Source: Escherichia coli
Lineage (GTDB): Bacteria; Pseudomonadota; Gammaproteobacteria; Enterobacterales; Enterobacteriaceae
DNA length: 64,000 bases
Strand: one strand, 5' to 3'
Assembly (NCBI RefSeq): GCF_003334305.1
Contig: NZ_QOWS01000011.1
Shown: in pieces, positions 6,388-6,452 of the stretch
Numbering within the stretch: the first letter of the stretch is position 1
Layout of the letters: every line of letters begins with the position of its first letter
Notes under the pieces: model-generated
Databases searched by the model: none
What the model was told of the DNA's origin: nothing
Seen by the model: the letters and a program-made list of their open reading frames with translations, nothing else
Translations under genes and position numbers: made by a program

Positions 6388-6452
6388 TGAAAATGATAAC
6401 TATTTCTAATAGTGGTGCTACCCGAAACGGGTTTATTTCAACCTGTTTCGGG
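6388..6452 (-). promoter_or_regulatory. fyuA promoter region: Fur-box-like AT-rich site plus YbtA repeat sequence
   Basis: Fur-like gaaaatgataactatttctaat (6389-6410) followed by inverted repeat cccgaaacggg(N10)cctgtttcggg (6421-6452), nearly identical to the repeat upstream of irp2. Confidence 0.6.

Follow-up and report, generated by a model that had tools for sequence, protein, structure and literature searches.

A tandem pair of putative YbtA boxes and a weak Fur box in the fyuA promoter of an Escherichia coli high-pathogenicity island

What do a palindromic repeat and an AT-rich, Fur-like site do in the short gap upstream of fyuA, the gene for the TonB-dependent ferric-yersiniabactin receptor? 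Together with the yersiniabactin genes, fyuA is a major fitness and virulence factor in Yersinia, uropathogenic E. coli, Klebsiella and some Salmonella. The original prediction for this DNA read the repeat as one of those bound by the AraC-type regulator YbtA, and expected expression of the gene to be repressed by iron and activated by YbtA. Our analysis of the window, by which we mean the whole 64-kb stretch of E. coli DNA, indicates that positions 6389-6452 are very probably the fyuA promoter control region, in which two putative YbtA boxes (RS1 and RS2) are followed by a weak Fur box. That fyuA is controlled by Fur and YbtA is already known, having been described since 1996, and to that our analysis adds nothing new. 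What we observe here is the presence of the module, its recurrence, conservation, directionality and constant spacing, and its coincidence with a published Fur ChIP peak.

The repeat between ybtE and fyuA

[quoted passage not shown] More than 2,260 complete E. coli genomes match positions 6200-6600 with 100% identity and have ybtE and fyuA annotated on either side, and the gene names used here are backed by the RefSeq annotation of identical E. coli DNA. The gene under control, fyuA, occupies 4312-6333 on the minus strand. Upstream of it on the same strand lies ybtE (6464-8041), the last gene of the irp2-irp1-ybtUTE operon, followed by ybtT, ybtU and irp1 (all minus) and then by irp2 (19521-25628, minus, with the RefSeq start). 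The longest irp2 ORF opens at a GTG at 25646; RefSeq sets the start at 25628 (2035 aa), and the published position of the irp2 Fur box, 44 bp upstream, agrees with the latter. The product of 25819-26778 (minus) is 99% identical to YbtA and is annotated as such by RefSeq, so that the gene for the cognate AraC-type regulator, the presumed binder of the boxes, is present in the same locus as the repeats. The ybtPQXS genes (26945-33141) are on the plus strand. An integrase-sized ORF (33335-34378, minus) and a tRNA-Asn gene (34759-34834, minus) mark the insertion end of the island, and a tRNA-Ser (CGA) gene lies beyond the tRNA-Asn at 35826-35915. Well studied as these sites are, RefSeq lists zero regulatory or protein-binding features at 6418-6452, 25701-25735 and 26805-26868 when annotating the identical E. 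coli DNA.

The repeat and the Fur-like site share the 130-bp gap between ybtE and fyuA, which has to be read on the minus strand. In the direction of the genes the order is the ybtE stop codon (6464-6466), the repeat, the Fur-like site and the fyuA ATG, and the position upstream of fyuA had been called correctly. The pattern CCCGAAACGGG-N10-CCTGTTTCGGG is found on the plus strand at 6421-6452 exactly as it had been described, with 11-nt arms that pair at 10 of 11 positions around a 10-nt spacer. A second copy at 25704-25735, between ybtA and irp2, deviates from the pattern at one position, and its arms are fully complementary. A pattern search of the window returned four strand-matches at two places, and none appeared in 100 dinucleotide-preserving shuffles; the near-exact recurrence upstream of irp2 is thus real and not expected by chance.

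Read toward fyuA, the repeat resolves into two boxes. The distal box, CCCGAAACAGG (6442-6452, minus), is one arm of the palindrome and begins 11 nt past the ybtE stop codon. It is followed by the A-rich 10-nt spacer TTGAAATAAA (6432-6441, minus) and by the proximal box with a conserved TAG, CCCGTTTCGGG-TAG (6418-6431, minus), which abuts the presumed -35 region and scores higher than any other half-site of the window (18.8 bits). Each box is itself a small dyad, CCCG-N3-CGGG, and 21 bp separate the two centres. At fyuA and irp2 the central triplets of the two boxes are AAA and TTT, which is what gives rise to the long palindrome.

The three island promoters and their relatives in other genera

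The original prediction had proposed aligning the promoters of fyuA, irp2 and ybtP. Each read toward its gene, the three are colinear over about 70 bp, through the boxes, the TAG and the core of the Fur box, with a common order of box 1, a 10-nt A-rich spacer, box 2, TAG, 9-10 variable nucleotides and the Fur box. At fyuA the gap from box 2 to the Fur box AGAAATAGTTATCATTTTC is TAGCACCACTATT (13 nt, counting the TAG). The irp2 pair (25701-25735, minus), paralogous to that of fyuA, reads CCCGAAACGGG-CATAAATAAA-CCCGTTTCGGG-TAG, and its gap TAGCATTCAATT (12 nt) leads to the Fur box GTTAATAATTATTATTCTC at 25673-25691 (minus; 15/19 matches to consensus), 44 bp upstream of the RefSeq start. In the divergent ybtP/ybtA region, the pair at 26805-26839 (plus), ACCAATGCGGG-TATAAATAGA-ACCGAATGGGG-TAG, is degenerate and non-palindromic and has the top score in the window (46.5 bits); its gap TAGATGAGTTATT (13 nt) is followed by the Fur box GATAATGGTTATTATTCAC at 26850-26868 (plus; 15/19), the reverse complement of which is GTGAATAATAACCATTATC.

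These are the promoters at which YbtA has been placed. Two papers describe 'repeated sequences' (RS) as YbtA binding sites, accompanied by Fur boxes, in the irp2, fyuA and divergent irp6(ybtP)/ybtA promoters (PMC5634559, PMC8725597). As summarized in two of the sources, YbtA activates fyuA, irp2 and irp6(ybtP), represses ybtA, and probably binds as a dimer with yersiniabactin (PMC5634559, PMC3672683); as cited there, the RS statements trace to Fetherston 1996 and Anisimov 2005a,b (PMC5634559, PMC3672683). In a paper of 2022 the repeats still go by the name of 'putative' or 'predicted' YbtA sites (PMC8725597). Deletion of ybtA in Salmonella Infantis with pESI lowered fyuA, irp2 and ybtP transcripts about twofold (PMC11225919). 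The expected fit to YbtA-bound repeats is thus borne out by published RS at the same promoters and by the conservation of the module beside ybtA homologues, the sites here being putative ones.

The literature counts three RS in the ybtA/ybtP region, versus the pair that we recover: between 26779 and 26944, full-site and half-site matrices searching for a third repeat (RS3) return only the pair at 26805-26839. RS3 may be too degenerate for the half-site matrix. A RACE result from pESI puts the ybtA start about 65 bp before its ATG, so the box pair lies downstream of the ybtA start, which would fit repression of ybtA by YbtA. At the fyuA promoter of Klebsiella indica (locus L004, about 2880-2915) we see a repeat of the irp2 type, CCCGAAACGGG with the spacer CATAAATAAT, which suggests exchange or convergence between promoter copies.

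Close relatives were taken from the FyuA loci of Klebsiella michiganensis, K. oxytoca, K. indica, Raoultella and Salmonella diarizonae. Searching species genomes with FyuA yielded these five loci at 92-97% protein identity, and a plasmid search yielded only copies 98.5-100% identical. Across the six FyuA loci, window included (92-100% identity), variable columns number 2/22 in the boxes (one of 11 in each), 0/3 in the TAG and 1/19 in the Fur box. These 3 of 44 columns compare with 174 of 298 (58%) fourfold-degenerate sites of fyuA (binomial P = 7e-13) and with 32 of 86 other non-coding columns (Fisher P = 1e-4). In the same alignment, the variable columns amount to 8/11 from the ybtE stop to box 1, 4/10 in the spacer and 5/10 between the TAG and the Fur box.

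More distant loci were reached through YbtA homologues instead of FyuA: a metagenome contig (91% identity), Serratia symbiotica (79%), Pluralibacter gergoviae (57%), Xenorhabdus bovienii (56%), Pectobacterium (55%), Burkholderia oklahomensis (49%) and Xanthomonas hydrangeae (47%). The module is present in every promoter flanking these homologues. Over 17 sites beside ybtA homologues of 47-100% identity, in seven genera, the consensus is aCCGATnCGGG-tagAAATAaA-cCCGaTTcGGG-TAG; within the spacer consensus, tagAAATAaA, positions 15-17 and 21 of the site are nearly invariant A, and the 21-bp period is kept in 17/17 sites. A weight matrix whose training set was restricted to 11 sites of Pluralibacter, Pectobacterium, Burkholderia, Xanthomonas and Xenorhabdus, the five most distant genera, was run over the entire 64-kb window. 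The three HPI promoter sites ranked first to third, at 46.5, 43.9 and 39.9 bits, and the next, unrelated match scored 2.3. In leave-one-genus-out scans the hand-picked sites were the top matches in every other locus, which reduces, and does not remove, the circularity of 17 cross-genus sites first chosen by eye. The modules lie, for example, at 9860-9894, 10994-11028 and 12777-12811 of locus L008, at 9943-9977 and 11102-11136 of L011, and at 9944-9978 and 11034-11068 of L012.

The element is directional, since the fyuA site scores 39.9 bits on the gene-facing strand vs 23.6 on the opposite one. Pairing between the arms falls to 4-7 of 11 positions in the ybtP copy and most of the distant sites; the ybtP copy and the distant copies cannot form a long hairpin. 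The term 'palindromic repeat' thus holds for fyuA and irp2 and does not name a conserved property. Judged from these comparisons, the conserved unit is a directional tandem box pair with a Fur box downstream, not a hairpin, and the long palindrome is lineage-specific.

The arms invite two other readings. An imperfect palindrome that is intergenic and present in more than one copy resembles a dispersed repeat, REP-like or the end of a mobile element, with no gene-specific role. We rejected this reading, which we regard as having next to no chance of being right, on the distribution of the copies: the 64 kb hold two full copies only, both at island promoters, with a degenerate third at the remaining island promoter, and in all seven genera the element stands beside a ybtA homologue and a Fur box. 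It is also conceivable that the inverted repeat works as RNA, a hairpin 11 nt past the ybtE stop that ends or stabilizes the irp2-irp1-ybtUTE transcript and insulates fyuA. The fyuA copy directly follows ybtE, and its minus-strand RNA folds with -20.2 kcal/mol (z = -4.7); the irp2 copy reaches -23 kcal/mol. The stem at fyuA, however, is followed by UAGCACCACUAUUAG, which is no U-tract, and a terminator scan gave no match on the minus strand, so the repeat does not qualify as an intrinsic terminator. At irp2 a terminator would be redundant, as a much stronger hairpin of terminator type downstream of ybtA is already present (-36.9 kcal/mol, tail UGUUCUUUCC). The boxes are kept in the ybtP copy and most distant copies where the complementarity of the arms is lost, and the unpaired spacer and TAG make the element strand-directional, which also speaks against a hairpin role. 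Rfam holds no family match for the repeat; the single sub-threshold chance match scored 13.8 bits vs a gathering score of 181.5. With no U-tract, no conservation of the hairpin and redundancy at irp2, the terminator reading was rejected as very unlikely. Slightly less improbable, though still unlikely, is a combination in which the near-perfect 32-bp palindrome that the HPI lineage has at fyuA and irp2 is both an activator site and an RNA hairpin that stops or stabilizes the upstream transcript (ybtE, or read-through from ybtA). If true, this would be a dual role, one sequence serving as activator site for the downstream gene and as insulator for the upstream gene.

The hairpin downstream of ybtA (25754-25788, minus) has a 15-bp stem, z = -5.4 and a pyrimidine-rich tail. 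It lies 31 nt past the ybtA stop codon, just upstream of the irp2 boxes, and is likely the ybtA terminator.

Fur occupancy and the iron response of fyuA

A search of the window for the Fur consensus with up to three mismatches found no match, and the full ranking was used instead. The best 19-mer of the fyuA promoter, 6389-6407 (minus), agrees with the consensus GATAATGATAATCATTATC at 13/19 positions; 24 positions in the window score at least 13, so the match is not significant alone. The predicted Fur-like, AT-rich site is thus present, if modest. Only two places in the window reach 15/19, the Fur boxes of irp2 and ybtA/ybtP, and the fyuA site holds the same position in its module as these two best boxes do. 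Among the 17 promoters, a Fur-like 19-mer lies 12-13 nt past box 2 in 11; in four more the best-scoring placement is offset by a single 6-nt Fur repeat (gap 7), and in the others it lies at 11, 14 or 19 nt. The core of the fyuA box, AAT-NN-TTATCATT, recurs in better-scoring Fur boxes of other genera.

Published Fur data from the uropathogenic strain CFT073, the sequence of which is identical to the window here, can be placed on these sites. Fur ChIP-seq peak heights were 2150 at irp2_1, 1445 at ybtA/ybtP and 48.9 at fyuA, the last at 2247059 (PMC7157518). The Fur-like box corresponds to 2247056-2247074 of CFT073, and the centre of the fyuA peak falls inside it. In the fur mutant fyuA rose 21-fold, and it was assigned to the direct Fur regulon; the motif table of the same study gives no Fur motif instance for fyuA (PMC7157518). 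The ybtA motif reported under the ChIP peak (GTGAATAATAACCATTATC, PMC7157518) is 26850-26868 of the window, and the irp2 site gel-shifted by Fur in work on Salmonella pESI (GTTAATAATTATTATTCTC, PMC11225919) is 25673-25691. In Salmonella with pESI, iron chelation induces fyuA, as does mutation of fur (PMC11225919). The iron-repressed, YbtA-activated expression that had been proposed agrees with the 21-fold rise in the fur mutant and the ChIP peak within the box, the YbtA activation coming from the literature.

Of the three Fur boxes, that of fyuA is clearly the weakest (13/19 vs 15/19), with a ChIP signal 30-44 times below those of irp2 and ybtA. Such figures invite the view that 6389-6407 is merely a -10 and spacer region with no working Fur operator, and that iron reaches fyuA indirectly, through Fur repressing ybtA. 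The low peak (48.9 vs 1445-2150 at the other two promoters), the missing motif listing (PMC7157518) and the 24 equally good places in the window all favour it. The centre of the ChIP peak nevertheless falls within the 19-mer, the offset of 12-13 nt is that of the strong irp2, ybtP and distant-locus Fur boxes, and the core is common to better-scoring boxes in other genera. Constraint speaks in the same direction: 1/19 columns vary vs 58% of neutral sites, and a -10 element alone would constrain about 6 nt, not 19. We consider a purely indirect route improbable and favour a weak but genuine Fur box at fyuA. The weak match and weak peak suggest that indirect control via ybtA probably contributes much of the iron response of fyuA. 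The agreement between the weakest box and the 30- to 44-fold lower ChIP signal offers a sequence basis for graded Fur control.

A proposed mechanism and its known counterparts

A candidate -10 element, TATCAT, lies at 6393-6398 (minus), within the Fur box. If TATCAT is the -10, a 17-nt spacer would put the -35 at GTAGCA, which matches 3/6 positions and directly abuts box 2. Such a layout would be that of a promoter at which an activator has to contact the polymerase, and it fits that a scan for the sigma-70 consensus found no full match on the fyuA (minus) strand.

We propose that CCCGAAACAGG and then CCCGTTTCGGG-TAG act as RS1 and RS2, and that YbtA, presumably a dimer loaded with yersiniabactin, occupies them, as binding described in the literature would predict. 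With their 21-bp period the two boxes would lie on one face of the helix, from which bound YbtA would activate transcription; the proximal box abuts a poor -35, where YbtA may recruit RNA polymerase. When iron is plentiful, Fe-Fur would sit on the weak box overlapping the likely -10 TATCAT and block initiation. When iron is scarce, Fur would leave, ybtA, with its much stronger Fur box, would be derepressed, and YbtA would raise fyuA transcription. Both irp2 and ybtP would be driven by this module too (box, box, 12-13 nt, Fur box).

The closest counterparts are RS1 and RS2 of the Yersinia HPI, at psn/fyuA, irp2 and ybtA-ybtP(irp6). Locus, genes, position upstream of fyuA and pairing with a Fur site are all the same, and we find no substantive difference in a comparison that runs through E. 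coli sequence, the DNA having matched that of CFT073 at 100%. The source papers for the RS are, as cited in PMC5634559 and PMC3672683, Fetherston, Bearden and Perry (1996, Mol Microbiol 22:315) and Anisimov et al. (2005, FEMS Microbiol Lett 250:27 and Int J Med Microbiol 295:19). Within the island itself, the irp2 and ybtA/ybtP Fur boxes share with the fyuA box the offset from the proximal box, the core AAT-NN-TTAT(C/T)ATT and a Fur ChIP peak; they differ in strength, at 15/19 vs 13/19 and with peaks of 2150 and 1445 vs 48.9.

In the tandem sites of AraC/XylS-family activators, for example araI1-I2 and the XylS sites at Pm, a directional half-site occurs twice at a 21-bp period, and the proximal one abuts the -35. 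The fyuA pair is alike in its 21-bp period, its directional half-sites and the place of its proximal box at the presumed -35. Unlike those sites, the YbtA boxes have an internal dyad, CCCG-N3-CGGG, and, in this lineage, central triplets that are mutually inverted (AAA vs TTT). A further parallel is the PchR-box of the pyochelin promoters of P. aeruginosa, a conserved element of about 32 bp reportedly described by Michel et al. (2005, Mol Microbiol 58:495) as a target of a siderophore-loaded AraC-type regulator. It is said to stand upstream of biosynthesis, receptor and regulator genes that have Fur boxes too, and PchR is said to activate its targets and repress its own gene. Regulator and siderophore differ from those here, and the likeness is one of organization only, an analogy and not membership. 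By this analogy, the fyuA region most likely works in the manner of a PchR-box.

The site in its generalized form, a directional box pair with a 21-bp period and a Fur box that follows after 12-13 nt, could be used to annotate yersiniabactin-type regulons, as it holds beside the YbtA homologues of Serratia, Pluralibacter, Pectobacterium, Xenorhabdus, Burkholderia and Xanthomonas. Beside the homologues of 47-57% identity (Pluralibacter, Pectobacterium, Burkholderia oklahomensis and Xanthomonas hydrangeae), the module could mark the regulons of yersiniabactin-type regulators.

Two of the distant loci have unusual surroundings. In Xenorhabdus bovienii (L010), box-plus-Fur modules flank the 56% identical ybtA homologue on both sides, at 9936-9970 and 10977-11011, scoring about 41 bits each. 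The neighbours called there are cobalamin genes and small ORFs, with no siderophore synthesis or transport genes among them, and this YbtA homologue may be an orphan regulator, or else what survives of a lost cluster. In Serratia symbiotica (L006, 11136-15379), the irp2-like gene has been cut short to 928 aa, an IS transposase (rve) comes after it, and irp1 is absent. The three promoter modules are nevertheless all intact, and the whole has the look of a yersiniabactin locus that is decaying in a symbiont.
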